Shown: in pieces, positions 4,740 through 20,780 of the stretch
How the letters are laid out: every line of letters begins with the position of its first letter
How positions within the stretch are numbered: position 1 is the first letter of the stretch
Assembly: GCA_041752735.1 (NCBI GenBank)
Contig: JBGSVW010000006.1
Location: 30,399 to 94,398 of the forward strand
DNA: 64,000 bases
Origin: Anaerovoracaceae bacterium
GTDB taxonomy: Bacteria > Bacillota > Clostridia > Peptostreptococcales > Anaerovoracaceae
Direction of reading: 5' to 3'
The notes under the pieces: generated by a model
What the model saw: only the letters and a program-made list of their open reading frames with translations
What the model was told of the DNA's origin: nothing
Databases searched by the model: none
Position numbers and translations under genes: made by a program

Positions 4740-4752
4740 TTTCTTTCTCCCT

Positions 4753-6109: not shown

Positions 6110-6140
6110 ATTCTGAACCCTCCCCCGACGGGAGTGTCAA
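6110..6140 (-). promoter_or_regulatory. MerR-type promoter with 19-bp spacer and internal dyad
   Basis: On the minus strand, TTGACA (6140..6135) is followed by the 19-nt spacer CTCCCGTCGGGGGAGGGTT, which contains a CTCCC/GGGAG dyad, and then CAGAAT (6115..6110). A 19-bp spacer is the hallmark of MerR-controlled promoters. Confidence 0.55.
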
Positions 6141-6315
6141 TAGGCAAAAATGTAATTCTATTTCTGACTGATTTTTATGACAGATTGTTCCTATAATATA
6201 TCATAAAGGGGCGAACTTATAAATATGCCCCTCTATACTCCTTGAAAGCCTCACCTACATTGTGCGTATAACATAACTACCGCCCTTGTTTTTTGTGTGT
6301 TGCACACAAATTTGC

Positions 6316-6344
6316 TTGACGAAACCGCCTTTTTCATATATACT
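6316..6344 (+). promoter_or_regulatory. sigma-A promoter of the leu-pheA operon
   Basis: TTGACG (6316-6321) is followed by a 17-nt spacer and TATACT (6339-6344). It lies about 50 nt upstream of the leuA ATG. Confidence 0.55.
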
Positions 6345-6393
6345 CTCCATAATCGAGGCGAGGTTTCACTTGCCCACAGAAAGGATATCGGAC

Positions 6394-8109
6394 ATGAAGA
6401 ATTCTAGTAAATCTGGCAAATACGGCGTCAGCTACTATATGCCTCCAAAATGGAACGCCTCCTGGGTACAAAAGGAGTATATCGACAACGCACCCCTATG
6501 GTGCAGCGTTGACCTACGAGACGGAAATCAGGCTCTCATCGTTCCAATGACCCTGGAGCAAAAACTGGAGTTCTTTACTTTTTTGGTCGAACTGGGTTTC
6601 AAACAAATCGAAGTGGGTTTTCCCGCCGCATCGGACACCGAGTACCAATTCTTGCGAGCGCTAATTGAAAAAAATCTGGTACCTGATGACGTACAGCTTC
6701 AAGTACTGACCCAGTCACGAACCCACATCATCAAAAAAACCTTTGATGCCCTGGTGGGTGCCAAGAATGCCATCGTCCACCTGTATAATTCCACCTCAGT
6801 GGCTCAGCGGGAGCAGGTCTTCCGTGCCTCCAAAGAAGAGATCATCGACATTGCCATCAAAGGCGCTAAGCAAATCAAAAAGACCGCGGAGAAGTATCCT
6901 GAAACGAAGTTTCAGTTTGAGTACTCCCCCGAGAGTTTCACCGGCACTGAGCCGGAATTTGCGTTGGAAATTTGCAACGCCGTCATTGATGTTTGGCAAC
7001 CTACAGCGGATTGCAAAGTCATTATCAACTTGCCCAGCACGGTGCAGATGTCCATGCCTCATGTGTATGCTACACAAATCCAATATATGAACGATAATCT
7101 ACACAATCGGGAGAACGTGCTGATTTCCCTTCATCCCCACAATGACCGGGGTACCGGTGTTGCAGATGCGGAGCTGGGGCTTCTGGCCGGCGCAGACCGA
7201 GTGGAAGGAACCCTCTTCGGTAACGGCGAACGAACAGGCAACGTAGATATCATCACCCTAGCACTGAATATGTACACCCACGGGGTTGACCCGGGGCTCA
7301 ATCTATATGACATGCCACGGATTGTGGCTATGAGCGAGAAATTTACCGACATTAAAGTCCATCCCCGGCAGCCCTACGGCGGCCAGCTGGTATTTGCCGC
7401 ATTCTCCGGTTCCCACCAAGATGCCATCGCCAAAGGCATGGCGTATCGATCCGAAAACAGTCTCCATCGTTGGGCGGTTCCCTATCTTCCCATTGATCCA
7501 ACTGATTTGGGCAGGGAATACGAGGCGGATGTAATCCGAATCAACAGCCAGTCCGGCAAAGGCGGCGTGGCCTTTGTGCTGGAATACAACTTTGGCTACA
7601 TCATTCCACTGAAGATGCGAGAAGAACTGGGTTATATGATCAAGGACATCTCCGACAAAACCCACAAGGAACTAGCCCCTAAAGAAATCCACAAGCACTT
7701 CACCAAAGAATATGTCAATCGTTTCTCACCTCTGGATATCCAGGATGCCACCTACAAAAAGAGCGCGGACATCAAGAAAAGCAGCACCTTTGATGTAGAC
7801 TTGAAAGTCCATCTCTTTGGAGATCATTACGAATTACATGGCGTGGGCAATGGCCGTCTGGATGCAGTCCGCAACGCTTTGAACAATAGTCCATATACCT
7901 TCGATTACACCTTTGTCACCTATTCGGAACATGCGTTGGAATCGGATTCCAACTCCCGTGCCGTGGCCTATGTCGCCATAGCCGACAAAGAAGAAAACGT
8001 TTTCTGGGGTGTAGGGCTTCACGAAGACATCGTCTTCGCATCCATTAACGCACTGGTCAGCGCCATTAACCGGATGACCGAAAAACACACAATGCAGGAG
8101 GAAAAATAA
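6394..8109 (+). CDS. leuA: 2-isopropylmalate synthase (long form)
   Basis: Matches include [14 protein letters not shown] and [11 protein letters not shown], plus a C-terminal LeuA dimerisation/regulatory region. The start is the Met after AAAGGA; the TTG at 6286 was rejected. Confidence 0.9.
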
Positions 8110-9392
8110 TGGCAATGACCATGACACAAAAAATATTAGCTGCCAAAGCAGGCCTTTCCCATGTTACCCCGGGACAATTGATCCGGGTGAAGCTGGATTT
8201 GGTGTTGGGCAACGACATTACCTCACCGGTAGCCATCAACGAATTCAACAAGGGCGGATTTACCCAGGTATTTGATAAGGACAAAATCGCCCTGGTCATG
8301 GACCACTTCACCCCCAACAAAGACATCAAGGCTGCCGAGCAATGCAAGCAGTGCCGAACCTTTGCTGGTGATCTTCAGATTTCCAATTTCTTTGATGTGG
8401 GCCAAATGGGCATTGAGCACGTATTGCTTCCCGAAAAAGGACTGGTGGTTGCCGGAGACTGTGTCATTGGCGCCGACTCCCACACCTGCACCTATGGCGC
8501 GTTAGGCGCGTTTTCCACCGGAGTGGGAAGCACGGACATGGCCGTAGGCATGGCCACCGGGGAAGCCTGGTTCAAAGTGCCTTCAGCCCTGCGATTCCGA
8601 CTGACCGGTTCCCTGCCCCCCTATGTTGGCGGCAAGGATGTGATTCTTCATATCATCGGCATGATCGGCGTTGACGGCGCTTTGTATAAATCCATGGAGT
8701 TTACCGGCCCTGGTCTTGCTTCCCTGTCCATTGATGACCGACTTTGTATGTCCAACATGGCCATTGAAGCCGGCGCGAAGAATGGGATTTTCCCGGTGGA
8801 TGAAATCACCAAAGCGTATCTGGATCAACGATCTTCCCGGTCCTATACGGTCTACGAGGCAGATGCGGATGCGGAGTATGACGAAACCTTTGAAATCAAT
8901 CTATCGGAGATTCGTCCCACTGTGGCCTTCCCCCACCTGCCGGAAAACACAAAAACCATTGACGAAATCCGCAGCCTGGCGCAAGATATTGTTATAGACC
9001 AGGTGGTCATTGGCTCCTGTACCAACGGACGTTTGTCCGACATGGCAGAAGCGGCGGCCATCCTGAAGGAGCAAACGGTTTCCTCTCACGTCCGGACGAT
9101 TATCATTCCGGGCAGCCAGGAAGTGTACAAGCAGTGCATCGTCAAAGGCTATCTTGAGATTTTCGTCGATGCGGGTTGTGTGGTTTCCACCCCCACCTGC
9201 GGCCCCTGTCTGGGTGGTCACATGGGCATCCTAGCAGCCGGCGAACGTTGTGTTGCCACCACCAACCGGAACTTTGTGGGTCGGATGGGTCACGTGGAAT
9301 CAGAAATCTATCTGGCCGGACCTGCCATTGCAGCGGCTTCTGCCATTGCCGGAATCATCACAGCGCCCGGGGAGGTAACATCATGCAAGTAA
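8109..9392 (+). CDS. leuC: 3-isopropylmalate dehydratase large subunit
   Basis: It has aconitase-family motifs ([28 protein letters not shown]). The start overlaps the leuA stop (TAATG). Confidence 0.9.
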
Positions 9393-9871
9393 AAGGATTT
9401 GCCCATCGATACGGAAACAATGTGGACACGGATGTGATTATCCCTGCCCGATATTTGAATACGTCCTCCCATGCCGAGCTAGCGCGCCACTGTATGGAAG
9501 ACATCGACCCGGAATTTGCCGCCAAAGTCAAAGACGGCGACTTGATCGTTGCCGGAGAAAACTTCGGGTGTGGGTCCTCCCGGGAACACGCCCCCATCGC
9601 CATCAAGGCCAGCGGGGTATCCTGTGTCATCGCCAAAAGCTTCGCCCGGATTTTTTATCGGAATGCCATCAACATTGGTCTTCCGATTATGGAATGTCCC
9701 GACGCTGCGGAAGCCATCAAGGCTGGCGACCTGATTGCCGTGGACTTTGATGCCGGCACCATTATCAACGAAACCCAGGGAACCTCCTATCAGGCGGAAC
9801 CTTTTCCATCGTTTATCCTGGATATCATCCGGGCAGGCGGTCTGATCAACAGCATCAAGGAGGTCAAATGA
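9383..9871 (+). CDS. leuD: 3-isopropylmalate dehydratase small subunit
   Basis: Matches are [25 protein letters not shown] and [14 protein letters not shown]. The ATG follows GGAGG. The 9176 start in the track is a spurious 5' extension inside leuC. Confidence 0.9.
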
Positions 9872-10974
9872 ATTACCAAATCGCAGCCATACCCGGCGAC
9901 GGTATTGGCCCTGAAGTAACCATGCAAGCCCTACGGGTTTTGCTGTCCGTCGGTGCTGTCTTTGGACACACCTTTACCATCGAATCCTATCCCGCCGGTG
10001 GCGCTGCCATTGACGAGACAGGGGAATGTCTTCCCGCCTCCACCATTGAAGGCTGCAAGGCAGCCGACGCAGTCCTCTTAGGCGCTGTAGGTGGAGACAA
10101 GTGGGATAGTCAGCCACTGGAAAATCGTCCTGAAACGGCATTGTTGGGACTACGAAAAGCCCTAGGACTTTATGCCAACATCCGTCCCGCCATTATGTTC
10201 GACCAATTGGCTGATGCCTGCCCGCTGAAGCCGGAGTTGGTAGCCGGTGGCATGGATCTAGTGGTGGTTCGGGAACTCATCGGTGGCATTTACTTTGGTG
10301 AAAAAGGCACAAAGCAAACCCCCATGGGTCTGGCCGGCTACGATGTTGAAATCTACGCCGAAGAAGAAGTCCGACGGATTGGCCGGGTCGCTTTTGAAAT
10401 GGCCATGAAACGAAATAAGAAAGTCACCAGCGTGGACAAAGCCAATGTTTTGGAAAGCTCCAGGCTGTGGCGTCGCGTCATGGAAGAGGTTGCCCTGGAA
10501 TATCCAGAAGTCACCTTATCCCATTTATATGTGGATAACGCCGCCATGCAATTGGTCATCCATCCCAAACAATTTGACGTGATTGTCACCGGCAACATGT
10601 TCGGGGACATTTTATCCGACGAGGCCTCCATGATTACCGGCTCCATCGGGATGCTACCCTCTGCCAGTCTGGCTGACAAAGGATTCGGCCTCTACGAACC
10701 GGTCCACGGATCGGCGCCGGACATTGCAGGTCTGAACATCGCCAATCCCATGGCTGCCATCTTATCGGTTGCCATGATGCTCAAATATAGCTTCGGTCTG
10801 ACTGCAGAAGCCGACAGCATCACCAACGCTGTGAAGGAAGTCCTTTCCATGGGCTACCGAACCACGGATTTGGCGCGAATTCCATCGGACTCCAATTACG
10901 CCACGGAACAAAAAATCCTGGGGACCCTGGAAATAGGTAGCCTTATTGCCGCCCGAATCAAAAAGGAGATATAA
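9868..10974 (+). CDS. leuB: 3-isopropylmalate dehydrogenase
   Basis: Matches are [23 protein letters not shown]-like [12 protein letters not shown] and GSAPDIAG. It has an ATGA overlap with leuD. Confidence 0.92.
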
Positions 10975-10975
10975 G

Positions 10976-12112
10976 ATGAAACTTGAAGATATTAGACCAC
11001 AAATCGACCAGGTAGATGACCAGCTGGCAGCCTTGATCCGGAGACGGTTTGAGTTGGTGGAACAAGTGGCCGCCATCAAAAAAGAACAGAATCTACCTGT
11101 GGCAGATAGTAGCCGGGAACGGGATATCATCAACCGACTTTCCAGCGGCGACAACGAGGAAATGCGGGGTTACCTGAAGATATTCTTCCATACACTCTTT
11201 GATATGTCCAGATCTCATCAACTACGTGCCATTCACACCGACTCCAAAACCGCAGAAGTCATGGCGACGGCTCTCAAGGAGACGCCCCAGATGTTCCCAA
11301 AGGATGCGGTAATTGCCTGTCAAGGCGCAGAAGGGGCCAATTCAACCCAGGCTTCCGAGAAGTTCTTTAGCCATCCATCCATTATGTATTTTAATACCTT
11401 TGAAGGTGTTTTTTCGGCTGTGGAAAAAGGGATGTGCCAATATGGTATTCTGCCCCTTGAAAATAATCTCCACGGTTCAGTGACGGAAATTTATGACCTG
11501 ATGCATCAGTACCGGTTCTACATAGCCAAGAGCCTGAAGCTCAAAATCAATCATGTGCTTTTAGCCAAACCGGGAACCAAGCTTTCTGACATCAAAAAAA
11601 TATATTCCCACGAGCAAGCCCTGGCTCAATGCGGAAACTTCCTAAAAAACCTCAAGGCAACCGTAGAGCCCTGTGAAAACACGGCCATGGCAGCAAAACA
11701 CGTGGCTGCTTCCGACGAAAAAGGAGTGGCTGCCATTTCCTCCGCATACTGTGCGGATCTGTATAACCTAGAAGTGGTCAAAGAAGACATTCAAAACAGC
11801 GATAACAACTACACCAAGTTCATCTGTATTTCCAAGAAGCCGGAAATCTATCCGGGTTCCAACAAAATCAGCATTATGGTAATCTTATCCCATAGGCCAG
11901 GTGCGCTGTATCATTTCATGTCCAAGTTTGCGGCCTATGATGTCAACCTGACAAAAATAGAAAGTCGCCCCATTCCGGATAGCGACTTTGATTTCAGTTT
12001 CTTCTTTGATTTTGAAATTTCGATTTATGATGAGGCACTAGCCTCGTTGTTTGCACAGCTGGAAGACTCCACCAAGCAATTTGCTTTCTTAGGTTGCTAC
12101 ACGGAACAATAA
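10976..12112 (+). CDS. pheA: bifunctional chorismate mutase / prephenate dehydratase
   Basis: The N-terminal CM_2 helix (IDQVDDQLAALIRRRFELVEQVAAIKK) is followed by a PDT domain and a C-terminal ACT domain (ESRP motif in TKIESRPI). The ATG lies 1 nt after the leuB stop. Confidence 0.88.
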   Translation: MKLEDIRPQIDQVDDQLAALIRRRFELVEQVAAIKKEQNLPVADSSRERDIINRLSSGDNEEMRGYLKIFFHTLFDMSRSHQLRAIHTDSKTAEVMATALKETPQMFPKDAVIACQGAEGANSTQASEKFFSHPSIMYFNTFEGVFSAVEKGMCQYGILPLENNLHGSVTEIYDLMHQYRFYIAKSLKLKINHVLLAKPGTKLSDIKKIYSHEQALAQCGNFLKNLKATVEPCENTAMAAKHVAASDEKGVAAISSAYCADLYNLEVVKEDIQNSDNNYTKFICISKKPEIYPGSNKISIMVILSHRPGALYHFMSKFAAYDVNLTKIESRPIPDSDFDFSFFFDFEISIYDEALASLFAQLEDSTKQFAFLGCYTEQ

Positions 12113-12463
12113 CCAAAGGAGCAATAGCCCCCCAACCCAGAGGATGACCACAGTAATGGCACAACCCCATTTCTGTGGTTTTTTGTCGGCCCACAAGCCT
12201 TCCGCCTCAATCCGGCATCGGTTCATCAGGTCAGTCGGAATTATTTTAATCAGTAAGGCTACCAAAATCGGCAACAAAATCAGGTCATCCAGCAACCCCA
12301 GCACTGGTATAAAATCCGGGATGATATCAATGGGCGACAGGGCATAGGCGACAATTAGGATCGCCAGAATCTTGGCTGCCCTGGGCGTCTCTTTTTTATG
12401 CATGGCAATATAGATTGCTGGGAGCTCTTTTTTCAGTTGCTTGGCCCGAGACTTCCAGTCCAT
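12089..12463 (-). CDS. DUF1232 (YkvA-like) membrane protein
   Basis: YALSPIDIIPDFIPVLGLLDDL is the DUF1232 signature. The 3' end overlaps the pheA 3' end by 24 nt (convergent). Confidence 0.75.
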   Translation of the reverse strand: MDWKSRAKQLKKELPAIYIAMHKKETPRAAKILAILIVAYALSPIDIIPDFIPVLGLLDDLILLPILVALLIKIIPTDLMNRCRIEAEGLWADKKPQKWGCAITVVILWVGGLLLLWLLFRVAT

Positions 12464-12503
12464 TCCTCTATCCTTTCAAATCATCAAATCCATTATGCTT
12501 GGA

Positions 12504-13205
12504 TTACTCCGATTTACCGATGAAATCGAGAATTGCCTCAACCGTCTGCTTCTGTTGTTCAGCTTTAGAGATTGTGGCGGTTCCATCTCCTTTTTGTTTG
12601 CCGTAGTCTCCATAGTTGGCGTGGTTGCCACCGTCAATGATAAGCACGTTTGTGTCATAGTCTACTTTGGTTTGGTCAAGCACCAGGTCCTGACTGCCAT
12701 AAATGGTCAGCGCCTTGTCCGGGCTCCATCCGCCATAGACATACGCTCCAAGAAGAATGACATTTTCAATTTGATCAGAGTGGTCCACCGCAAAGCTACT
12801 GGCCATGACCCCGCCCAGGGAATGTCCCCCAATGAGCCAATGGGTGATTTCCGGTCTGGCGTCGAAAACTGCTTCGCCTCCATTTTTGTTGAACACTGCC
12901 AGGTTGAAAGGCATCTTCACCAGCACGCAGGTTATCCCTTGTTCCCGCAACTGATCCAATAAGGGCAGATAAGCTTCCGCTTCTACTTTGCCACCCGGAT
13001 AAAAAATCAGTCCCGTATCTCCCGGCACCACCGGATCCAAAATCATCAGATCCCCTTGTGTGGTGACTTGGGTCTTGTCTTCCGCCAACGCCATGGCAGT
13101 TTGATCGGCGTGGGAATAGTCGGAGGCATAGACAAAGAAACCGCCAATGAGTATTATCAGGATTGTCATAATCGATAGAAGTACATTCTTTGTCCGCTTC
13201 TTCAT
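12504..13205 (-). CDS. membrane-anchored alpha/beta hydrolase
   Basis: It has an N-terminal signal anchor, the nucleophile elbow GGHSLGG and a downstream DGGNH. Confidence 0.75.
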   Translation of the reverse strand: MKKRTKNVLLSIMTILIILIGGFFVYASDYSHADQTAMALAEDKTQVTTQGDLMILDPVVPGDTGLIFYPGGKVEAEAYLPLLDQLREQGITCVLVKMPFNLAVFNKNGGEAVFDARPEITHWLIGGHSLGGVMASSFAVDHSDQIENVILLGAYVYGGWSPDKALTIYGSQDLVLDQTKVDYDTNVLIIDGGNHANYGDYGKQKGDGTATISKAEQQKQTVEAILDFIGKSE

Positions 13206-13292
13206 AATTTATTCTCCCTCTAAAAAATTTTTTTATATTTTTATTATACCACAGGTAAATCATGGTCACGCATCCATTCTTTCATGGCCAAA

Positions 13293-13312
13293 AACGTTGA
13301 TATTACAACGTT
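13293..13312 (-). terminator. short hairpin with T-run on the minus strand (weak terminator candidate)
   Basis: AACGTTG-atatta-CAACGTT is followed by extra T residues when read on the minus strand. No obvious gene ends here. Confidence 0.35.
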
Positions 13313-13355
13313 CCTATTTGTTTAAAAAATTTTTTCAATTTTCTGATAATATCTA

Positions 13356-13384
13356 TTGACAAATCAATTTACCGGGAGTATTAT
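13356..13384 (+). promoter_or_regulatory. near-consensus sigma-A promoter of an orphan RNA
   Basis: TTGACA (13356-13361) is followed by an exact 17-nt spacer and TATTAT (13379-13384). An A/T-rich UP-like tract precedes it. Confidence 0.65.
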
Positions 13385-13389
13385 TACCT

Positions 13390-13745
13390 TACTCACCGAA
13401 GAAGAGTTCCCCAAAAGGAATGTCAAGTAGGCGGGCCGCTCCGAAAAATCGTAGCCATAAAACGAATGAACGCCGTGAAAAGCGAAGTTCGAAACAAGGT
13501 TGAAATCCTGTTCACTAAGAGCTAATCGAGAGATTACATTCGAAGGAATAAGGAACAGTCGATGAAGTCGGGATTCAGCGTTTTGTGCCGATATGGTACA
13601 TGAATCTGAGAGATATGATAGTCTTAGTACAGCATATCGAAACCGAATAGGAGTAGTAAAAGAAAGGAGGATATACTCCATTGTGGTATACCCTCAACTA
13701 AAGGGTAGATGAATTCAATAGAATTATCTACCCTTTGTCTTTGCG
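13390..13745 (+). ncRNA. unclassified structured RNA of about 350 nt (orphan leader-like transcript)
   Basis: It is bounded by the promoter above and a 16-bp terminator hairpin. The sense strand is purine/A-rich with several hairpins (for example CGATATG...CATATCG at 13589-13638). No credible ORF is present and no plus-strand gene lies downstream. Confidence 0.55.
13700..13745 (+). terminator. intrinsic terminator of the orphan RNA, with competing antiterminator
   Basis: AAAGGGTAGAT(G)AATTC-aata-GAATTATCTACCCTTT (13700-13736) is followed by a T-rich tail. TACCCT (13689-13694) can instead pair with AGGGTA (13702-13707). Confidence 0.65.
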
Positions 13746-13781
13746 TTTATTTTCTAATTTAGTTCATTCTTTTTTGAAAAG

Positions 13782-14315
13782 CTATAAAAAGTTGGCCCAA
13801 GGGCGATTTTCTTTGTCCACCGATGCCCAGTATGCTAGCCGCACCGATAAAAGATTGGCAGCTTCTGATAGCGTCTTTTCCTGGTCACCTTGAGAATTTA
13901 GAATCACCGCAGCTTGCACGGCATATGCTACATAAGCAGGCGAATGGGTGGCAACATGAACCACGCCGATGATCTGCCCCATGGCATGGGCCGCCGCAAC
14001 TGCAGCATCTAATTTTATATCATCTATTTCCGGATTTCTCTTCGCCAATTTTGCATCTCTTGCTGCCTCATGGGTTTCCCGGGCGGCTTTTTTTGCCTGG
14101 GGCATTTTTATTTCACCGCGAGACCAAGCATCGGCGGCTTCAAAGGCTTGAGCGGGTCGAGGATCTTCCGGAAATGCGGCCATGTAAATCTCCAGAATCT
14201 CTTTCCCGGTGTCCAGTGCCCATAAGACCAATGTCCGGTGGTCCTGCCGGCCGATACTCTCATACAAAGACAGCAGATTGGGATGATCATAAATCGCCTT
14301 TAGGTTTGTCTTCAT
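13782..14315 (-). CDS. all-alpha hypothetical protein resembling the putative-immunity (Imm5-like) family
   Basis: The sequence MKTNLKAIYDHPNLL...LVLWALDTGKEILEIYMAAFPEDPRPAQAFEAADAWSRGE...AAAHAMGQIIGVVHVATHSPAYVAYAVQA resembles that family from memory only. The ATG overlaps the hisD stop (ATGA at 14315..14312). Confidence 0.55.
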   Translation of the reverse strand: MKTNLKAIYDHPNLLSLYESIGRQDHRTLVLWALDTGKEILEIYMAAFPEDPRPAQAFEAADAWSRGEIKMPQAKKAARETHEAARDAKLAKRNPEIDDIKLDAAVAAAHAMGQIIGVVHVATHSPAYVAYAVQAAVILNSQGDQEKTLSEAANLLSVRLAYWASVDKENRPWANFL

Positions 14316-15592
14316 TTTTCGTCCAGCAGCTGTCTGGCTTCCGCAGCACGGGCATGGGCTTCCAGCCCTTCTCCTCTTGCAAGAGTGGATACGATGGGCA
14401 ATATGGTTTTCACTCCTTTGGCATCCAGCTTCTGATGGGTGCATACCTTTAGGAAGGTCCCAACCCACAGTCCACCTGTATACCGAGCGGCACCCAAAGT
14501 TGGGAGTGTATGATTGGTTCCTGTGGCATAGTCTCCAAAGACTTCTGCGGTCCTTTGCCCAATAAATAGGGAACCGTAATTCCGAAGTTGCGCAGTTAAA
14601 GACGATTCTAGTTTTTCTTCAACCATAATTTCCAAATGCTCCGGCGCATAACTGTTGGCATATTCAATTGCCTCGGTCAAATCCGCTGCCAGCAGGATTT
14701 CCCCATAATCTTTCCAGGATTGAGCTGCAATGGCTCGTGTAGACAAGTCCTCCAGTTGATTCTCAACCTGTGCCAGCACCGCCTCGCCCAAAGCAAAATC
14801 TGTAGTTACCAGAATTCCCTTAGCGACTTTGTCATGCTCCGACTGGGCCAGCAAATCTGCTGCGATAATTCTTGGATTGGCTGTGCCGTCTGCGATGACC
14901 AGCACTTCGCTGGGTCCGGCGAGAAAGTCAATGCCAATCTGGCCGAAACACTGCCTTTTTGCCTCCGTAACATAACTATTGCCCGGCCCCACAATCAGGT
15001 CCACTGGTTTGATGGACGCGGTGCCGTATGTGGCTGCGGCAACGGCTTGTGCGCCGCCGACCACATAAATTTCATCCATTCCCGCCATATTCATGGCCAC
15101 AAGGGTTTTTGGGTGAATGTTGGGCGTTCCTTTCATAGCCGGAGAGCATCCGATGACACGTGGCACCCCGGCAACCTTTGCCGGAATTCCCAACATCAAG
15201 GCGGTGGAATAGAGGGGGTAGCTTCCTCCTGGCACGTAACAGCAACACCCGTCAACGGGAATAACTCGGTGTCCTAAGGTAATACCCGGCATGGGCGTAA
15301 CCCCTTCCAATGATGTGAACAATGTCTTTTGCGCTTGGGCAAATGCTCGGATATTGGCTGCGGCCTGCTCCATTTTTTTAATGTCTGAGGCTTCCACTTG
15401 TTGATATGCATCTGCGATTTCCTGATCACTGACCCGAAGGGATTCCCTATGGCACTGATCAAAATCCGAATTATATGTGCGCAGTGCCTGGTCTCCCCGA
15501 GCGCTGACTTCTTCGATGATGTTTGCAACCCGTCCGGCCAACTCAGCCGAGTCTGCCAAGGAACGGGGCATTGCTTGTTTCATGGTTTTCAT
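14312..15592 (-). CDS. hisD: histidinol dehydrogenase
   Basis: It is a full-length 426-aa match to the HisD pattern (PGGSYPLYSTALM, QSEHD, GDYATGTNHTLPT). Confidence 0.92.
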   Translation of the reverse strand: MKTMKQAMPRSLADSAELAGRVANIIEEVSARGDQALRTYNSDFDQCHRESLRVSDQEIADAYQQVEASDIKKMEQAAANIRAFAQAQKTLFTSLEGVTPMPGITLGHRVIPVDGCCCYVPGGSYPLYSTALMLGIPAKVAGVPRVIGCSPAMKGTPNIHPKTLVAMNMAGMDEIYVVGGAQAVAAATYGTASIKPVDLIVGPGNSYVTEAKRQCFGQIGIDFLAGPSEVLVIADGTANPRIIAADLLAQSEHDKVAKGILVTTDFALGEAVLAQVENQLEDLSTRAIAAQSWKDYGEILLAADLTEAIEYANSYAPEHLEIMVEEKLESSLTAQLRNYGSLFIGQRTAEVFGDYATGTNHTLPTLGAARYTGGLWVGTFLKVCTHQKLDAKGVKTILPIVSTLARGEGLEAHARAAEARQLLDEK

Positions 15593-15635
15593 GCTTGCTA
15601 CCTACTCTTTTCTTTAATGGTGGATGTTATGCTTT

Positions 15636-15665
15636 ATTGTAATTGGCAAGGCCTTCCTTTGTCAA
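15636..15665 (-). promoter_or_regulatory. sigma-A promoter of hisD
   Basis: On the minus strand, TTGACA (15665..15660) is followed by an 18-nt spacer and TACAAT (15641..15636). Confidence 0.55.
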
Positions 15666-15728
15666 TGAAAACAGGCCGTCGCAGGCAGCATCAGACAGGA
15701 TTGACTGCAAAATCCATCTGCGTTTTCC

Positions 15729-15757
15729 TTGACTTCACGTTTTCCCAAAGATATACT
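15729..15757 (+). promoter_or_regulatory. sigma-A promoter directly abutting the mntP start codon
   Basis: TTGACT (15729-15734) is followed by a 17-nt spacer and TATACT (15752-15757). The ATG is at 15764. Confidence 0.45.
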
Positions 15758-15763
15758 CTTTTC

Positions 15764-16330
15764 ATGAGTTTATTAGAATTACTGCTGGTAGCAGTCGGTC
15801 TCTCCATGGATGCCTTCGCCGTGGCCATATGCAAGGGCCTTTCCATACAACAAGAACATCAGAAGCGATCTGCCTCACAATCCATTTATACCGGTTTGTG
15901 GTTTGGCATATTCCAAGGTGCAATGCCTCTCATTGGTTACTTTGTCGGGGCCAAATTCAGCACATTGGTCAGCGGCTTCGACCACTGGATTGTTTTTCTG
16001 CTCTTGCTCCTCATTGGAGGCAAGATGATTAAGGAGTCCCGGGAAGCGGATTCATGTCCCAACCCATCATTCAAGCCTATGACCATGCTGCCTTTGGCCG
16101 TGGCAACTAGTATTGACGCGTTGGCTGTGGGGGTCTCGTTCGCTTTCCTAAAGGTTAACATTGTTGAAGCTTCCTCCATCATTGCGGCAACCACCTTTCT
16201 CTTGTCGGCAATCGGCGTCCAGGTGGGCTGTTTTTTCGGCACCCGATTCAAATCCAGGGCAGAATTGGCGGGTGGTTTGGTCTTGATTGCCATCGGCACC
16301 AAAATTCTTATAGAGCATCTTCTGGGTTAG
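15764..16330 (+). CDS. mntP: manganese efflux pump MntP
   Basis: Matches are MSLLELLLVAVGLSMDAFAVAI and the second repeat LAVATSIDALAVGVSF. The 15398 start in the track is an antisense-derived extension. Confidence 0.85.
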   Translation: MSLLELLLVAVGLSMDAFAVAICKGLSIQQEHQKRSASQSIYTGLWFGIFQGAMPLIGYFVGAKFSTLVSGFDHWIVFLLLLLIGGKMIKESREADSCPNPSFKPMTMLPLAVATSIDALAVGVSFAFLKVNIVEASSIIAATTFLLSAIGVQVGCFFGTRFKSRAELAGGLVLIAIGTKILIEHLLG

Positions 16331-16346
16331 TATGAATAATCTACCC

Positions 16347-16375
16347 TTTACAGAATCGGTTTAACGTGGTAAACT
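16347..16375 (+). promoter_or_regulatory. promoter of the aro operon leader
   Basis: TTTACA (16347-16352) is followed by a 17-nt spacer ending in TGG and then TAAACT (16370-16375). This fits an extended -10 of the TGn type. Confidence 0.5.
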
Positions 16376-16407
16376 CTAACAAAGACAAAACGAAAGGAAC
16401 TAGTCCA

Positions 16408-16488
16408 TTGAAACATTCAGCAGTGGTAGCAAAATACTTTTATTACTACTTTACCTACGGTAAGGTGTATTTTGCTGCTGAGAGATAA
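16408..16488 (+). CDS. Tyr/Phe-rich leader peptide of the aro operon attenuator
   Basis: A TTG start lies 9 nt after AAAGGA. The peptide is MKHSAVVAKYFYYYFTYGKVYFAAER, with 6 Tyr and 3 Phe within 13 residues. It is too short for the ORF track. Confidence 0.65.
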   Translation: MKHSAVVAKYFYYYFTYGKVYFAAER

Positions 16489-16518
16489 CTTTCCTTTTGG
16501 AAATCACTCGAAACCTTT

Positions 16519-16553
16519 CTCCACAGGCAAAATATACCTGTGGAGTTTTTTTT
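16519..16553 (+). terminator. attenuator terminator upstream of aroF
   Basis: CTCCACAGG-caaaatata-CCTGTGGAG is followed by T8, and it ends 65 nt upstream of the aroF ATG. Confidence 0.8.
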
Positions 16554-16617
16554 ACCCCAAAGGTAATCTGGCCGGGGGTAAATCAGGAATCATCGTAGAA
16601 AAGCGGAGGAACACCCA

Positions 16618-17634
16618 ATGATTATCGTATTAAAAGAAAATCCGGAACAAAAACAGTTGGACAACCTGGTGGCATGGCTCAAAAGTATGGACATGGAGAT
16701 CCATTACAGTCAATACGGCACCACCACGATTATGGGGATTATCGGGGAGACAGCCATGGTGGACACAGAGCTGATTGAAGCTTTGGATATTGTGGAAAGC
16801 GTCAAACGGATTACTGAACCCTACAAAAACGCCAACCGGAAATTTCACCCCAAAGACACCATCATTGATATTGGTCCGGTTAAGCTGGGGGGCGGCCATT
16901 TTGCTGTCATCGCCGGTCCTTGCTCCATCGAATCCATGAATCAGGTTTGCTCCATTGCGGAAGAAGTCAAAGCAGCTGGTGCCCTATTATACAGAGGTGG
17001 TGCATTCAAACCGCGGACCTCTCCCTATGCCTTCCAGGGCATGCGTGAAACCGGTATTGAATTCTTATTGGAAGCCAAGCGACGTTCCGGGCTACCGGTG
17101 GTCACGGAAGTTATGGACGTGTCCCACCTGCCCCTCTTTGAGGACGTGGATGTGATTCAGGTAGGCGCAAGAAATATGCAAAACTTCGAGCTACTCAAGG
17201 AGCTGGGCAAGTTGGATAAACCGATTCTCTTGAAACGTGGGCTTTCCAGCACCATCAGCGAATTTCTCATGAGCGCCGAGTACATCATGGCCGGCGGAAA
17301 CCATAAGGTCATCCTATGCGAACGAGGCATCCGAACCTTTGAAACCGCCATGCGCAATACCTTGGACTTGTCCTGTATTCCCTTGATTAAAAGTCTTTCC
17401 CATCTGCCCATCATTGTGGACCCCAGCCATGCCACAGGCATTGCTTCCCTGGTGAAGCCCATGTCCATGGCCGCTGTAGCGGCAGGCGCGGATGGTCTGA
17501 TGATCGAGGTGCACAACGACCCGGTTCACGCACTCTGCGACGGAGCTCAGTCATTGACTCCGGCCGCTTTTCAGGATGTGATGAACGCTGTGATGCAGAT
17601 TTTGCCACTGGCATATAAAGGAGAAACAAAATGA
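16618..17634 (+). CDS. aroF: 3-deoxy-7-phosphoheptulonate (DAHP) synthase, type I-beta with N-terminal ferredoxin-like regulatory domain
   Basis: At 338 aa it has the Thermotoga-type architecture. After a roughly 70-aa N-terminal extension it carries GPCSIES, KPRTSPY and DPSHATG motifs. Confidence 0.88.
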   Translation: MIIVLKENPEQKQLDNLVAWLKSMDMEIHYSQYGTTTIMGIIGETAMVDTELIEALDIVESVKRITEPYKNANRKFHPKDTIIDIGPVKLGGGHFAVIAGPCSIESMNQVCSIAEEVKAAGALLYRGGAFKPRTSPYAFQGMRETGIEFLLEAKRRSGLPVVTEVMDVSHLPLFEDVDVIQVGARNMQNFELLKELGKLDKPILLKRGLSSTISEFLMSAEYIMAGGNHKVILCERGIRTFETAMRNTLDLSCIPLIKSLSHLPIIVDPSHATGIASLVKPMSMAAVAAGADGLMIEVHNDPVHALCDGAQSLTPAAFQDVMNAVMQILPLAYKGETK

Positions 17635-18470
17635 TAGGAGTCATCGGACTGGGGCTGGTCGGCGGATCCATGGCCAAAGCTCTGAATCAAAATACGGATC
17701 ATACGGTTTACGGATATGACATCAATGAAACCATCAGCCAAAAGGCCAAACTGGTCAACGCCATTGAAGATGTGCTGACTGATGAAATGCTACCCGAGTG
17801 CGACGTAGTGGTAGTTGCCTTGTATCCGGAAGCAACCATTGAATATGTCAAGTCCCATGCGGGTCTCTTCAAGAAAGGATCCATTGTATTAGACTGCTGC
17901 GGCGTCAAGGAAGTAGTATGTTCAGCATTGGAACCCATCGCCCGGGAAAATGGATTTGTCTTTATGGGCGGTCATCCCATGGCAGGCATCGAACACTCCG
18001 GATTTGAGTATTCCAAGAAAGCTTTGTTTGACAAGGCTTCAATGATTCTTGTGCCTGCAAAGGATACCCGGATTGAGGACATCGAATTGATTCGAAACCT
18101 TTGCAAAGCAATTGGCTTCACCATGATTCAGATGTCCACTCCAAAGGAACACGACCGGATGATCGCCTTCACATCCCAACTTCCCCATGTAATCTCCGGT
18201 GCTTACATCCGCAGCGATGCCGCAAAAGGTCATCAGGGGTATTCCGCCGGTAGTTATTGGGATATGTCCCGTGTTGCAAAGCTCAACGAAGATATGTGGA
18301 CCGAATTGTTTATGGACAATCCCGAATTTCTGGTCAATGAGCTTTCGGCTATGGCCAAACGCCTAACCGAGTACAGTGATGCCATTGCCCGTGGAGATCA
18401 AGAGACATTGCGGCAGCTTCTTCGAGATGGTAGAATAAAGAAAGAGACCATTGATAAAGAATTTTTCTAA
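17631..18470 (+). CDS. tyrA: prephenate dehydrogenase
   Basis: It has an IGVIGLGLVGGSMA Rossmann fold and GGHPMAG. It has an ATGA overlap with aroF. Confidence 0.88.
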   Translation: MIGVIGLGLVGGSMAKALNQNTDHTVYGYDINETISQKAKLVNAIEDVLTDEMLPECDVVVVALYPEATIEYVKSHAGLFKKGSIVLDCCGVKEVVCSALEPIARENGFVFMGGHPMAGIEHSGFEYSKKALFDKASMILVPAKDTRIEDIELIRNLCKAIGFTMIQMSTPKEHDRMIAFTSQLPHVISGAYIRSDAAKGHQGYSAGSYWDMSRVAKLNEDMWTELFMDNPEFLVNELSAMAKRLTEYSDAIARGDQETLRQLLRDGRIKKETIDKEFF

Positions 18471-18510
18471 ACACGTAATGACATTTCACGGTATTGCAAA
18501 GGAGAAAACA

Positions 18511-19596
18511 ATGATTCCTCTGACAATCAATACACATCAACCCTATAAAGTGATTTCGGAACCCGGTGCTTTGACCCAATTGGGCACCATATGTGCCGAT
18601 ATTTTGAAACCCTGCAAAATATGTGTTGTCACAGAAGACAACGTGGATATTCTTTATTCCGATACTGTAACGGGCTCATTGGAAAAAGCCGGATTTTGCG
18701 TACACAAAATTGTATTCTCTCCCGGCGAACACACAAAGAGTCTGGTTTCCGTCGGTTTACTGTTGGATTTTCTTTCAGAAAAAGAATTCACCAGAACCGA
18801 TGTGGTGATTGCCCTGGGTGGCGGTGTCATGGGGGACCTCTCCGGGTTCGCTGCATCCGTTTATCTCCGAGGAATCCGATATATTCAAGTCCCAACCACC
18901 TTTCTGGCGGCTGTTGACTCTTCTGTTGGCGGAAAAACCGGAGTCAATCTGGCCTCCGGCAAAAATTTAGCAGGCACCTTCTGGCAACCAACTCTAGTAG
19001 TCTTTGATCCTATGACAATGGACACCCTGGCGGAGTCAATGATTTTGGACGGCTTGGCAGAAACCATAAAATGTGGCATGATAGCGGATAAAAATCTGTT
19101 GGACTTTATAAAAGACACACCTTGGAATGGGTTGCCCACCGACAAAGCACTTTACGATTTTGTCCAGCGATGTGCCATCGGTGCCATTGGTGTCAAGCAA
19201 AAGCTGGTAGAAGAAGACGAAAAAGATTTGGCACAGCGCCAATTATTGAATTTCGGTCACACCATTGGACACGCCATTGAGCTATCCAGTAGATATACTG
19301 TTTCCCACGGCCAGGCTGTAGCAAAAGGAATGGTCATCGTCACCCGGGCAGCAATGATCAAAGGGTGGACCAAAGAAGACTGTCTAACTCCTTTGCTAAA
19401 TGCCTTGGATAAGTTTGGGTTTTTATTGGATGTGCCATACACTGCCGAAAGCCTGGCAGAGATTGCCCTTCGGGACAAAAAAAGAAAAGGCAAGACCATC
19501 AATCTGGTAATCCCAATCCGTCAGGGAGAAGGCGTCTTGAAGCCCATTGATGTTGACGACTTAAGTGACTTTATAGAAACGGGGTTACAACCATGA
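18511..19596 (+). CDS. aroB: 3-dehydroquinate synthase
   Basis: Matches are ALGGGVMGDLSGFAAS, VPTTFLAAVDSSVGGKTGVN and NFGHTIGHAIE. The start is the Met after AAGGAG. Confidence 0.9.
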   Translation: MIPLTINTHQPYKVISEPGALTQLGTICADILKPCKICVVTEDNVDILYSDTVTGSLEKAGFCVHKIVFSPGEHTKSLVSVGLLLDFLSEKEFTRTDVVIALGGGVMGDLSGFAASVYLRGIRYIQVPTTFLAAVDSSVGGKTGVNLASGKNLAGTFWQPTLVVFDPMTMDTLAESMILDGLAETIKCGMIADKNLLDFIKDTPWNGLPTDKALYDFVQRCAIGAIGVKQKLVEEDEKDLAQRQLLNFGHTIGHAIELSSRYTVSHGQAVAKGMVIVTRAAMIKGWTKEDCLTPLLNALDKFGFLLDVPYTAESLAEIALRDKKRKGKTINLVIPIRQGEGVLKPIDVDDLSDFIETGLQP

Positions 19597-20780
19597 AAAT
19601 GATCATACAACCCGGACCCTTAAGTGGAACTTTATCCGCCATCCCTTCCAAGTCCCACGGGCATCGACTCTTGATTGCTGCTGCATTGTCCAGCCCACAA
19701 GGGCAGGTACAGCTCACCGAAACTTCTGAGGATCTTGAAGCCACTCGCACATGCCTGTCTGCTTTGCATGAAAGCGATCCAGTTCTCCCATGTAGGGAAA
19801 GCGGGTCCACCCTTCGGTTTCTTTTGCCTGTCGCCATGGCACATCAATCTCATGTCAGATTCCTGGGGGAAGGCAGGCTCTTGAAACGGCCCCTTTCTCC
19901 TCTCAAAGAAGAGATGGAGCGACATGGGTGTCGTTTTCATATGGGTAAGGGTGAGCTGGAGGTCAAAGGATTGCTCCAAAGCGGCTCTTACCATTTACGA
20001 GGAGACATCAGCTCACAGTATGTCACAGGTCTTTTATTTGCGCTCCCTTTGCTGGCAGGAGATAGTGAAATACTCCTTACTACCCCTTTGGAATCCTGTG
20101 GTTATGTAGATATGACCGTGCAAGTACTGACGGATGCAGGGATTCAAGTGAACATATCAACACAGGAAGGAACATTCGGGCCTCATCGTGAGGCACTTCT
20201 CAAATACAATATCCCAGGGGGGCAGCATTACCAGAGTCCCGAGTTGGCGATTCCCGAAGGCGACTGGTCCAACGGCGCCTTTTGGCTAGCTGCCAATTAT
20301 GTGGGTTTTGGCAATCGGGTTACCTGCAACGGGCTTTCTGAAGATTCCCTGCAAGGCGACCGGATTATCTCAGACTTGCTCCGTGATTTCCCCAATGTCA
20401 TCGATGGTTCCCAGATTCCAGACTTGATTCCCATCCTTGCCGTTGTGGCATCGGTGCGACCGGGAATCACCACCATCAAACATGCGGAGCGGCTCCGCTT
20501 GAAAGAAAGCGACCGATTGGAAACCACAGTCCGACTCATCCGCGATCTAGGTGGAGATGCGGAGGAGTTACCTGACGGGATGGTCATCCGAGGAAGGCCT
20601 CTGCTTCGAGGCGGTACAGTGGACGGATGTGGAGATCATCGAATCGTTATGTCTGCTGCCATTGCATCTACCGTCTGCACCGAGCCCGTCATCATAACCG
20701 GTGCTGAAGCCGTCAATAAGTCCTATCCCGGTTTTTTCCGGGATTTCAAAGGGTTGGGAGGGAAAATCAATGAAATCTAG
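19593..20780 (+). CDS. aroA: 3-phosphoshikimate 1-carboxyvinyltransferase (EPSP synthase)
   Basis: Matches are PSKSHGHR, SSQYVTGLLFALPL, LKESDR and DHRIVMSAAIA. Confidence 0.88.
   Translation: MKMIIQPGPLSGTLSAIPSKSHGHRLLIAAALSSPQGQVQLTETSEDLEATRTCLSALHESDPVLPCRESGSTLRFLLPVAMAHQSHVRFLGEGRLLKRPLSPLKEEMERHGCRFHMGKGELEVKGLLQSGSYHLRGDISSQYVTGLLFALPLLAGDSEILLTTPLESCGYVDMTVQVLTDAGIQVNISTQEGTFGPHREALLKYNIPGGQHYQSPELAIPEGDWSNGAFWLAANYVGFGNRVTCNGLSEDSLQGDRIISDLLRDFPNVIDGSQIPDLIPILAVVASVRPGITTIKHAERLRLKESDRLETTVRLIRDLGGDAEELPDGMVIRGRPLLRGGTVDGCGDHRIVMSAAIASTVCTEPVIITGAEAVNKSYPGFFRDFKGLGGKINEI

Follow-up and report, generated by a model that had tools for sequence, protein, structure and literature searches.

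A probable stand-alone structured RNA gene, convergent with hisD, in a clade of Anaerovoracaceae

In the 64,000-nt stretch of Anaerovoracaceae DNA analysed here (“the window”), a promoter and a terminator-like hairpin enclose a region that resembles a riboswitch or attenuator leader, and the next genes lie on the opposite strand. What, then, does such a unit do? The initial annotation had left three options: a stand-alone regulatory RNA, a decoy, or the relic of a rearranged operon. The promoter, the 16-bp hairpin, the Shine-Dalgarno (SD)-like purines and the complementarity of TACCCT and AGGGTA that it had listed were all recovered in place, and the first of its options proved the best fit.

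Boundaries, conservation and transcription of the unit

In silico analysis of the + strand revealed a sigma-70-type promoter composed of a -35 hexamer TTGACA (13356-13361), a 17-nt spacer and a -10 hexamer TATTAT (13379-13384). The description of this promoter as a consensus one is borne out, since with 11 of 12 matches it is the top promoter-like site within 12400-14600. Across all homologs the -35 hexamer is invariant and the -10 hexamer reads TATTAT, TATCAT or TAATAT. An A/T-rich stretch located 5' of the -35 element (CAAAAATATTTTCAATTTTCTGATAATATCTA, 13325-13355) is near-invariant in 10 genus-level homologs and mostly retained in homologs L016 and L018, while further 5' the sequences diverge; it looks like an UP element or an operator. 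A Fur box was rejected, being a half-site match only that is not kept in L014 or L018. Transcription is predicted to start at about A13391, near the point at which the RNA coverage starts (13394-13409), and would yield a transcript of about 355 nt, from 13391 to about 13745. The conserved unit, from promoter to terminator, covers about 13325-13745 on the + strand: conservation begins about 30 nt 5' of the -35 element and ends just past the terminator tail, and outside these limits the homologs are unalignable. The transcript is indeed purine-rich (A 35%, G 24%, versus A 25% and G 22% for the whole window). That the locus stands out from chance follows from three lines of evidence: its MFE z-score of -3.56 on the + strand, its transcription, and the conservation of the block in 14 other loci.

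Within the genus-level Anaerovoracaceae clade the RNA is 92-95% identical, compared with 79-84% for the flanking DNA and 78-85% for the hydrolase protein, the exact window version of which returned no database record. In three more distant lineages the RNA is recognisable at 71-79% identity, where hisD is 70-76% identical. As judged from these identities, the promoter-to-terminator block is shown to be under purifying selection much stronger than that on the adjacent protein genes. The family is restricted to one uncultured, anaerobic clade of Anaerovoracaceae (Clostridia), and more distant homologs are known from metatranscriptomes alone: a conserved 25-mer gave one match among 185,579 species genomes, and a sister lineage with 74% hisD identity has no RNA at the syntenic site. 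The more distant expressed homologs (runs X10, X17 and X30) retain the 5' and 3' modules with a replaced middle, which is the pattern of a putative conserved functional core carrying a variable insert. Plasmid and phage searches gave no match to the RNA, and a mobile-element origin was rejected; the sole viral-contig match, of 21 nt, sits within a coding region, and four of the eight 21-mer matches in metagenomes are chance ones. A literature search on sequence fragments, Anaerovoracaceae non-coding RNA and abundant unknown RNAs found nothing relevant.

Behind the terminator lies Imm5_like (13782-14315, - strand), a convergent gene, and after it hisD (14312-15592, - strand). The statement that no gene follows on the same strand can be extended to the homologs: a + strand gene after the terminator occurs in 0 of the 14 loci showing that side (the window and 13 others), the next genes being convergent. 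The RNA is convergent with hisD in all loci; it directly adjoins hisD in L010, L016, L018 and L021, and in L014 a glycosyltransferase gene and an Imm5_like gene lie between the two. The neighbours found across the loci are leu/pheA, DUF1232, Abhydrolase_5, Imm5_like, hisD, mntP and aro genes; IscB, IsrB, TnpB, oapA and raiA genes are absent among them.

Transcription has been detected in metatranscriptomes from sediment, freshwater, wastewater and soil, where at least 16 labelled RNA runs belonging to at least 12 studies contain 41-75% of the 31-mers of the RNA. Contigs from seven of the RNA runs span about 13394-13713 alone, leaving the flanks uncovered. In a 20-kb depth profile the bin holding the RNA reached 278 in run X30 and 285,483 in run X17, against at most 12 and at most 32 in all other bins; the resulting excess, about 20 to 9,000 times any other stretch of the 20 kb, comes from assembled contigs that carry no strand information, the depth of which is a poor proxy for expression. 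The RNA is shown to accumulate orders of magnitude above the neighbouring mRNAs in many environments. The 3' arm of the terminator is reached by no RNA contig in any run, and in the seven runs all contigs stop by about 13713, including where the depth is about 10^6.

Fold of the RNA

Through comparison of 13 sequences a 12-helix fold has been derived, in which 96.3% of the cells are paired. Fourteen pairs are changed on both sides, versus 4.5±1.6 in shuffled alignments (0 of 500 reach 14), and slid controls gave at most 8 double-changed pairs and a covariation score of at most 0.028, versus 0.127 observed, most of this covariation being contributed by only three truly divergent lineages. G·U cells (163) far exceed A·C cells (15), which indicates that the + strand is the folded one. 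The alignment thus shows about 12 covariation-supported helices on the + strand; from 5' to 3' they make up the 5' domain, the three-way junction at the centre, a pair of variable hairpins and the 3' domain. Helices HX1, H4 and H9 and a long-range GCUCC/GGAGU pairing are uncertain. Two further pairings were discarded: a long-range one between 13430-39 and 13683-92, proposed by the first RNAalifold run, is contradicted by L016 and L018, and a local 5' hairpin ACUCA/UGAGU fails in the same two homologs.

The 5' domain (13392-13435) consists of helix H1 (CUCACC, 13392-97, with GGYGGG, 13430-35) closed around hairpin H2 (13406-10 with 13417-21). Two lineages have U-A in place of a U·G pair of H1; H2 combines an invariant stem with a variable loop (CCCAAAA, CUUCA, GAAAAC). 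A local hairpin, 13430-33 with 13437-40, is an alternative as consistent as H1. The conserved 5' module (AAAGGAAUGUCAAGUAGGYGGGCCGCUCCGAAAAAUCG, 13414-13451) is near-invariant in the 13 homologs and is kept with six mismatches in the far more distant expressed homolog of run X30. The central three-way junction (13440-13572) is closed by HX1 (13440-44 with 13568-72) and HX2 (13448-51 with 13560-63). Its first arm comprises H4 and H3 (13452-13502), and its second arm is H5 (13506-13554), with the tip hairpin UAAUC-GAGA-GAUUA. An A-U pair of HX2 is replaced by G-C in L018; in H3 G-C changes to A-U or U-G, and the helix is entirely re-sequenced in L018; in H5 five pairs are double-changed. The strands GAAAUCCUGU and GAAGGAAUAAGGAA of the central domain are almost invariant. 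The following region (13575-13637) contains the variable hairpins H7 (13575-13609) and H8 (13613-13637), both with compensatory changes: U-A to G-C in two sequences for H7, and A-U to G-C and U-A to C-G for H8. Between them a 42-nt insertion is tolerated in L016, and RNA variants in run X17 include 13619 T>A, 13620 A>T, 13625 T>A and 13626 A>T.

The 3' domain begins with an invariant module (GAAACCGAAUAGGAGUAGUAAAAGAAAGGAGGAUAUACUCCAUUGUGGUAUACCCUCAACUAAAGGG, 13639-13706), which has zero substitutions in the 10 genus-level homologs, none at 3% or more among the 728 contigs of run X17, and two to eight changes each in L016, L018 and L021; it is common to the distant expressed homologs of runs X10, X17 and X30. 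The module contains the SD-like GAAAGGAGG (13662-13670), which together with A13661 forms AGAAAGGAGG (13661-70), complementary over 10 nt to the 3' end of 16S rRNA as usual in Firmicutes. This element is sequestered in hairpin H10, with which it occupies 13661-13695, and in which GAGG-A-UAUACU (13667-77) pairs with GGUAUA-C-CCUC (13685-95) and 99.2% of the cells are paired; in L016 a change of CC to UU turns G-C and A·C into G·U and A-U. Both L016 and L021 disrupt a smaller rival hairpin, GGAG/CUCC. In H10 the partner of the purine strand varies, the purine strand itself being invariant, as expected of a putative masked functional site. The RNA ends in an intrinsic terminator (13699-13745), in whose hairpin H11 (13699-13737) 13699-13716 pairs with 13721-13737 through 12 + 4 = 16 base pairs, followed by UCUUUGCGUUUAUUUUC. 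Its main stem is 100% and its apical 4 bp 98% paired, with two pairs double-changed. A simple terminator scan did not call this hairpin because the U-tract is interrupted; H11 probably also ends the convergent hisD operon. Helix H9 may form between the U-rich tail (UCUUU, 13738-42) and AAAGA (13659-63); in it A-U becomes U-A in L016 and U·G in L021.

Attenuator and coding readings of the locus

The reading of the locus as a riboswitch or attenuator platform had rested on an antiterminator/terminator switch. Of this reading, the stand-alone structured RNA running from promoter to terminator stands and the switch does not. TACCCT (13689-13694) is complementary to AGGGTA (13702-13707) in the window, but among the 13 homologs only the terminator stem covaries, the antiterminator having no double changes. 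Terminator pair 13706-13730 changes from UA to CG in three sequences, and pair 13710-13726 occurs as UA, UG and CG; in exactly those three sequences with the compensated terminator, the antiterminator pair 13690-13706 is A·C. The A1 helix flanking the antiterminator is broken in 5-6 of the 13. TACCCT is better explained as the 3' strand of the conserved 10-bp hairpin with the SD-like GAGGAUAUACU, for which 99% of the cells are paired. Conservation is moreover highest in the 3' part of the RNA, where a typical expression platform would show the reverse. On the reading favoured here, the RNA does not work as a ligand-switched leader for any gene downstream. The regions 13667-77, 13685-95, 13699-13716 and 13721-37 can pair as 1:2, 2:3 and 3:4, which are mutually exclusive, and together with a mini-ORF these alternative pairings do look like an attenuator.

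The mini-ORF in question (13681-13701, + strand) has six codons and a stop, UUG UGG UAU ACC CUC AAC UAA, and its frame, UUG-N15-UAA, is kept in 13 of 13 homologs. This frame enters a reading of the locus as a cis-acting sensor, either a riboswitch or an attenuator coupled to translation, that would act by letting RNA polymerase pass the terminator. A signal recognised by the upstream fold would unmask the SD in H10; ribosomes on the six-codon ORF would halt at UAA 13699-13701, covering the 5' strand of H11, and the polymerase would continue beyond the terminator to make an RNA antisense to hisD, lying across the convergent Imm5_like-hisD operon. The alternative pairings and the kept frame speak for it, as do the invariant SD-like strand with a masking strand that varies yet stays paired, the convergence with hisD at every locus and the aptamer-like conserved junctions with variable helices; such a design has a precedent in Clostridium acetobutylicum, whose ubiG operon has an antisense RNA driven by an S-box riboswitch. 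We nevertheless regard it as unlikely. The 2:3 antiterminator is the pairing that lacks covariation and is broken in 3 of 13 homologs, conservation would, atypically, peak in the expression platform, and a near-consensus promoter with an UP-like element fits a stable RNA made in bulk more readily than it fits a regulator serving a single, weakly expressed operon. Against it count also the genes intervening in L014, the sister lineage that keeps hisD without the RNA, and the contigs that all end by about 13713.

Could the locus encode a peptide instead? A micropeptide expressed from the strong SD, by an mRNA or a dual-function RNA, would be MWYTLN or, in an overlapping frame, MVVYPQLKGR. AGAAAGGAGG lies 10 nt upstream of the UUG codon, and frame and stop are kept throughout; yet all four substitutions in the mini-ORF are non-synonymous (giving MWYTLN, MRYILN, MQYTLN and MWYTLK) and non-conservative (W to R or Q, T to I, N to K). 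These changes are located in the H10 loop, in H10 pairs or in the linker after H10. The overlapping frame changes length in L016 and L021, the SD is buried within the conserved 10-bp helix, and about 290 nt of conserved upstream structure would be left without explanation. The peptide is probably not functional, and we give a micropeptide gene very little credence. A sense ORF of 39 aa (13593-13712) was rejected, its ATG at 13593 being ACG in homologs.

On the - strand, an ORF of 105 aa (13364-13681) is publicly annotated as a hypothetical protein and is spurious. A protein gene on that strand, or else the decaying relic of a leader with its operon rearranged away, could be argued from the lack of a + strand gene downstream and from the antisense ORFs of 105-134 aa called in several public assemblies. 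In this ORF, however, variable columns are distributed evenly over codon positions 1, 2 and 3 (19/17/15), amino-acid identity is below nucleotide identity, and 1-nt indels with a changed frame occur in L011, L003, L015, L016 and L018; the protein has no Pfam match and forms only 14 clusters, all within the same clade. The relic is contradicted by an RNA that is more conserved than the neighbouring genes, under strong purifying selection, and very highly expressed. Both forms of this explanation are already refuted as far as the tools used here allow, and we assign them almost no probability.

Relation to known RNA classes and proposed role

The window was searched against Rfam 15 both with the gathering thresholds and with E values up to 10, and neither search revealed a known aptamer class or any other catalogued class to which the RNA could be assigned; with the gathering thresholds the divergent homologs gave no match either, nor did L018 with E values up to 10. 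Three weak matches are attributed to chance: group-II-D1D4-3 (14 bits, E 1.2), the GNRA loop of which is not kept in L018 and L021; mir-1252, which covers the terminator hairpin only; and Clostridiales-3 (E 0.043), outside the RNA and on the other strand. A T-box, suggested by the similarity of AUUGUGGUAUACC to the T-box sequence and of GUGAAAA and UUCGAAA to T-loops, was rejected: UGG (13684-86) becomes CGG in L016 and CAG in L021, conservation is also lacking in the helix that would flank the bulge, and RF00230 gave no match at E up to 10. No tmRNA was found in the window by ARAGORN or by Rfam, and RNase P RNA (P4 region) and SRP RNA (domain IV) gave no match at E up to 10. OLE, raiA, ROOL, GOLLD and HEARO are without an Rfam match, and their characteristic neighbours are absent. 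A by-eye check for ANTAR, TRAP, HutP and PyrR motifs gave no convincing pattern.

The properties of a generic stand-alone non-coding RNA gene are all present: its own promoter and terminator, conservation limited to the unit, covarying structure and transcript evidence. With OLE and raiA it shares the status of a highly expressed, multi-helix, stand-alone gene of Clostridia, with near-invariant blocks between covarying helices and a function not deducible from gene context. In contrast to OLE (about 610 nt) and raiA (about 200 nt), it is of intermediate length, matches no Rfam model, has no oapA-type or raiA neighbour, and has a far narrower range, one Anaerovoracaceae sub-clade. The 5' structured domain, the overlapping pairings, the intrinsic terminator, the mini-ORF with an SD and the convergence with an amino-acid biosynthesis gene recall the terminator/antiterminator leaders (riboswitch, T-box or leader-peptide), relatives of which include, besides the ubiG antisense of C. 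acetobutylicum, the riboswitch-controlled decoys EutX/Rli55. It differs from them in the antiterminator that does not covary, the UGGN that is not conserved, the missing Rfam riboswitch match and same-strand downstream gene, and the highly conserved 3' platform. Like the STAB-SD of cryIIIA mRNA, GAAAGGAGG is a maximal complement of the 16S 3' end that does not start a normal gene; unlike the STAB-SD, it is found close to the 3' end, where H10 keeps it base-paired, and therefore cannot shield the RNA body from 5'-to-3' decay. The RNA recalls the CsrB/RsmZ sponges in being abundant and stand-alone and in having several conserved purine blocks with GGA; a CsrA sponge was rejected, as the GGA count (about 7) is that expected from composition and the motifs lie mostly in helices, not in hairpin loops. 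We know of no Csr sRNA in Firmicutes.

A likeness exists also to 6S and Ms1 RNA, which are very abundant and stable, with a strong promoter of the housekeeping type; the present RNA may be processed at the 3' end as well. It might accordingly be a highly diverged, clade-specific housekeeping RNA missed by the Rfam models, most plausibly a 6S/Ms1-like binder of RNA polymerase. Housekeeping RNAs typically share its abundance, its strong promoter of constitutive appearance and its extreme conservation of sequence, 6S RNAs are poorly conserved in sequence, and the uncovered terminator hairpin is compatible with 3' processing. The fold is nevertheless branched (a 5' domain, a three-way junction, two independent hairpins and a 3' junction) and not a long rod with a large central bubble and paired termini; the length, 355 nt, is about twice that of 6S RNA; no 6S (RF00013), RNase P, SRP or tmRNA match was obtained at E up to 10 for the window or L018; and the family is limited to one sub-clade and missing at the syntenic site of the sister lineage. 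A diverged housekeeping RNA is hence quite improbable.

The reading that we favour, with a confidence slightly above even, is that of an independent gene for a stable, constitutively transcribed, highly expressed, trans-acting structured non-coding RNA of about 355 nt, which represents a new family of the Anaerovoracaceae clade. Judging from its anatomy, abundance and conservation, the RNA would act in trans as a folded molecule, most likely as a ribonucleoprotein component or a decoy, and the placement of both termini in helices would make it long-lived. A protein or the 30S subunit could bind the long, invariant, purine-rich single strands GUCAAGUAGG, GAAGGAAUAAGGAA and AUAGGAGUAGUAAAAGAAAGGAGGAUAUAC, the last of which includes the 10-nt complement of the 16S 3' end. 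More tentatively, and with a chance that we place well below even, the RNA could be the founder of a new large, ornate and highly expressed class, with a core of 5' and 3' modules (ribonucleoprotein, catalytic or ribosome-interacting) and a variable centre, extending beyond the genus to the distant metatranscriptome homologs. In that case the invariant 16S-complementary element would point to direct contact with the small subunit of the ribosome, a mode of action for which we know of no described precedent in a stand-alone Firmicute RNA.

Large, abundant and structurally complex bacterial RNAs without an assigned function are few (OLE, raiA, ROOL and GOLLD), and each of them has been a route into new biochemistry. 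The RNA described here is as conserved as a housekeeping RNA, and it is publicly annotated as a hypothetical protein on the wrong strand; its recognition allows a spurious protein family to be removed from the databases. With its fold, boundaries and invariant blocks it is a well-defined candidate for pull-down, probing and structural work, and it provides a marker transcript for the clade in metatranscriptomes. Should the SD-complement module engage ribosomes, or should hisD be under signal-driven antisense control, the RNA would represent an unusual regulatory design.

Genomic context and distribution of the RNA gene

The RNA, encoded on the plus strand from 13391 to about 13745, is the product of an independent gene that is strongly selected, structured and very abundant, and its family is absent from Rfam. 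The sequence elements described in the initial annotation are all present. TTGACA (13356-61), a 17-nt spacer and TATTAT (13379-84) give 11 of 12 matches and form the top promoter-like site in 12400-14600. The transcript, with an A+G content of 59% (vs 47% window-wide) and an MFE z-score against shuffles of -3.56 (-2.80 for the minus strand), carries the Shine-Dalgarno-like (SD-like) stretch GAAAGGAGG (13662-70) and TACCCT (13689-94), complementary to AGGGTA (13702-07), and ends in a 16-bp hairpin (13699-13737) followed by a U-rich tail. The initial annotation assigned the RNA to no class, and the catalogue agrees: Rfam 15 at gathering thresholds left the RNA unmatched in the whole window and gave no match in six homologous loci, while searches at E up to 10 (13200-13850, 13386-13750 and the divergent L018 homolog) returned chance-level matches only, the best inside the RNA being group-II-D1D4-3 (14 bits, E 1.2). 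The sole Rfam or ARAGORN match in the 64-kb window is a tRNA-Pro (CGG) at 48412-48488 (+); ARAGORN found no tmRNA there, and plasmid and phage similarity searches with the RNA found none.

As initially noted, the next genes lie on the opposite strand, namely Imm5_like (13782-14315, -) and hisD (14312-15592, -). Upstream are a divergent Abhydrolase_5 gene (12504-13205), DUF1232 and pheA. At ATGA, the Imm5_like ("immunity protein") gene shares bases with the stop codon of hisD, so the two may be translationally coupled. The HisD-family gene is solitary: no his genes accompany it, and the operons on either side serve aromatic and leucine biosynthesis. Its substrate is uncertain, since several near homologs carry the JGI name 'sulfopropanediol 3-dehydrogenase'. 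With AAA and UUU at its two borders, and as the sole hairpin 3' of the Imm5_like stop codon, the hairpin at 13699-13737 probably terminates transcription in both directions, that of the RNA and that of the convergent hisD operon. Between the hydrolase gene and the RNA promoter lies the inverted repeat AACGTTG-ATATTA-CAACGTT (13293-13312, +), whose right arm (TTCAACGTT) is kept in all genus-level homologs; it was scored terminator-like by the terminator scan and may be an operator common to both divergent promoters. The hydrolase 5' leader (13200-13291, -) partially matches the first 96 positions of Rfam Clostridiales-3 (16 bits, E 0.043), probably by chance, as the score is far under gathering and the match is missing from the whole-window scan.

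A conserved 25-mer of the RNA matched one of 185,579 species genomes, an Anaerovoracaceae MAG (L010). Further homologous loci were obtained from a metagenome pattern scan (L002, L003, L008, L009), from hydrolase homologs (L011-L014, L020) and from hisD homologs (L015-L018, L021); hisD homologs at 65-67% identity carry the names Anaerovorax, Lentihominibacter and Anaerovoracaceae. Each locus holds one copy, in a constant gene order: leuCDB-pheA-(DUF1232)-(hydrolase), the RNA, then convergent (Imm5_like)-hisD, mntP and the aro operon. The RNA-hisD interval is variable and looks like an insertion hot spot, because Imm5_like is missing from L010, L016, L018 and L021 and L014 has an additional glycosyltransferase gene there. 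The RNA is missing at the syntenic site in two hisD lineages, L022 (74% identity) and L019 (68% identity).

Expression and conservation

The transcript on whose existence the initial annotation depended is present: the 31-mer index gives 20 runs of any kind (50-100% of its words) and 16 runs labelled as RNA, drawn from 12 studies or more. The samples are aquatic, lake, sediment, soil and wastewater, some runs being very small. Contigs of seven RNA runs span only ~13394-13713 and cover neither flank. Within 4000-23999, the mean depth of the RNA bin is 278 in run X30 and 285,483 in run X17, and that of the remaining bins at most 12 and 32, respectively, with matches there mostly below 90% identity; these data are assembled, strandless contigs, from whose depth abundance can be read only approximately. 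Even at ~10^6 depth, all contigs stop short of the terminator 3' arm, and in X17 adaptor sequence immediately follows 13669 and 13703. The abundant species may thus be 3'-processed near 13703-13713, which fits poorly with the compensation in helix H9 described below; alternatively, the terminator hairpin may be lost technically. X17 is a soil 'metatranscriptomic WGA' library in which the RNA word depth exceeds one million; its 728 variant contigs of the RNA (70-91 nt) and adaptor read-through suggest a short-insert library with the RNA among the dominant species.

Conservation in relatives, equally decisive for the earlier proposal, is pronounced. RNA identity in the genus-level clade is 92-95%, compared to 79-84% for the surrounding 9 kb and 78-85% for the hydrolase protein. 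The conserved block begins ~30 nt 5' of the -35 hexamer and runs to the terminator tail, and the homologs are not alignable outside it. Positions 13639-13706 show zero substitutions in ten genus-level sequences and no variant at 3% or more among the X17 contigs; this 3' module is nearly unchanged in the deep lineages (L016/L017, L018, L021), which are 71-79% identical overall. The L016/L017 homolog bears a 42-nt purine-rich insertion (GAGAUGAAAAUCAAAGAUAGACAUGUGAAAAUCAAUGAUGGAC) between H7 and H8 (L016 6470-6455 region; columns 228-269 of alignment A5), with an internal near-repeat (GAAAAUCAA twice). Other expressed contigs in RNA runs X10, X17 and X30 match only at 13647/13653-13688/13699, with 5-6 mismatches, one from X30 also matching 13414-13451; in these, another hairpin replaces H8, or the centre has 160 nt vs 195 nt. 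The family is thus probably wider still, its 5' and 3' modules conserved and its middle variable.

Secondary structure

A 12-helix model (M1) was derived from RNAalifold runs and inspection of divergent sequences. Its helices are H1 (13392-97 with 13430-35), H2 (13406-10 with 13417-21), HX1 (13440-44 with 13568-72), HX2 (13448-51 with 13560-63), H4 (13452-56 with 13498-13502), H3 (13463-73 with 13482-91), H5 (13506-27 with 13532-54), H7 (13575-90 with 13594-13609), H8 (13613-22 with 13629-37), H9 (13659-63 with 13738-42), H10 (13667-77 with 13685-95) and H11 (13699-13716 with 13721-37), all on the plus strand. Across the 13 sequences of A5, 96.3% of cells hold standard pairs. Fourteen pairs changed on both sides, vs 4.5±1.6 after column shuffling (none of 500 shuffles attains 14) and at most 8 with partners slid by 1-3 columns; the same slide lowers the covariation score from 0.127 to 0.028 or less. 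Compensations are clear in HX2, H3, H5, H7, H8, H9 and H11, and the excess of G·U (163) over A·C cells (15) identifies plus as the folded strand. H1, HX1 and H4 are uncertain in the model: for H1 there is a competing local hairpin and for HX1 a competing long-range GCUCC/GGAGU pairing, invariant and thus without covariation information, and H4 has an A·C pair in all three deep lineages. H10 pairs GAGG-A-UAUACU with GGUAUA-C-CCUC and so sequesters the SD-like stretch; in L016, CC to UU turns G-C and A·C into G·U and A-U, and a smaller GGAG/CUCC hairpin is broken in L016 and L021.

Alternative readings and proposed role

The antiterminator/terminator switch of the initial annotation gained no support from the comparison. 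Terminator pair 13706-13730 changes from UA to CG in three sequences, a compensation, and pair 13710-13726 has UA, UG and CG variants, whereas the antiterminator has zero double changes and its pair 13690-13706 is broken in the same three sequences. The TACCCT strand belongs to H10, and a ligand or translation switch is therefore not supported, though unlikely rather than refuted. That pattern also weighs against a cis sensor by which the RNA drives antisense read-through into the convergent hisD operon, a reading we regard as unlikely, even though the H10 purine strand never varies while its partner can, as for a masked site, and 1:2/2:3/3:4 pairings with a mini-ORF ending on the terminator 5' arm could couple translation to read-through. 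As for a T-box, the hallmark UGG is CGG or CAG in homologs, and a lower helix of the T-box type is disrupted in 5-6 of 13 sequences.

A six-codon ORF after the SD-like stretch is in frame in all homologs; its changes are exclusively non-synonymous (MWYTLN, MRYILN, MQYTLN, MWYTLK), which leaves a micropeptide mRNA little weight. The ATG of a 39-aa sense ORF is not kept in homologs. The antisense ORF of 105-134 aa (13364-13681, -) is annotated as 'hypothetical protein' P0121-P0134 in several public assemblies. Its 105-aa form has no Pfam match, no third-position excess (variable columns 19/17/15), an amino-acid identity below the nucleotide identity and frameshifting 1-nt indels; the protein family thus looks spurious, a product of a purine-rich ncRNA.

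Selection, fold and abundance bear out the stand-alone RNA gene among the options first offered; the same selection and abundance speak against a relic, which deserves little weight. A diverged 6S-type RNA is very improbable. The RNA is of the same kind as the OLE- and raiA-type orphan structured RNAs but a member of none of them. One invariant purine-rich stretch is complementary over 10 nt to the usual Firmicute 16S 3' end. On balance, the reading we slightly favour is that of a long-lived RNA, both termini of which would be held in helices, acting in trans, whose invariant purine-rich single strands, including this complement, would serve as the binding surface for a protein or for the small ribosomal subunit.
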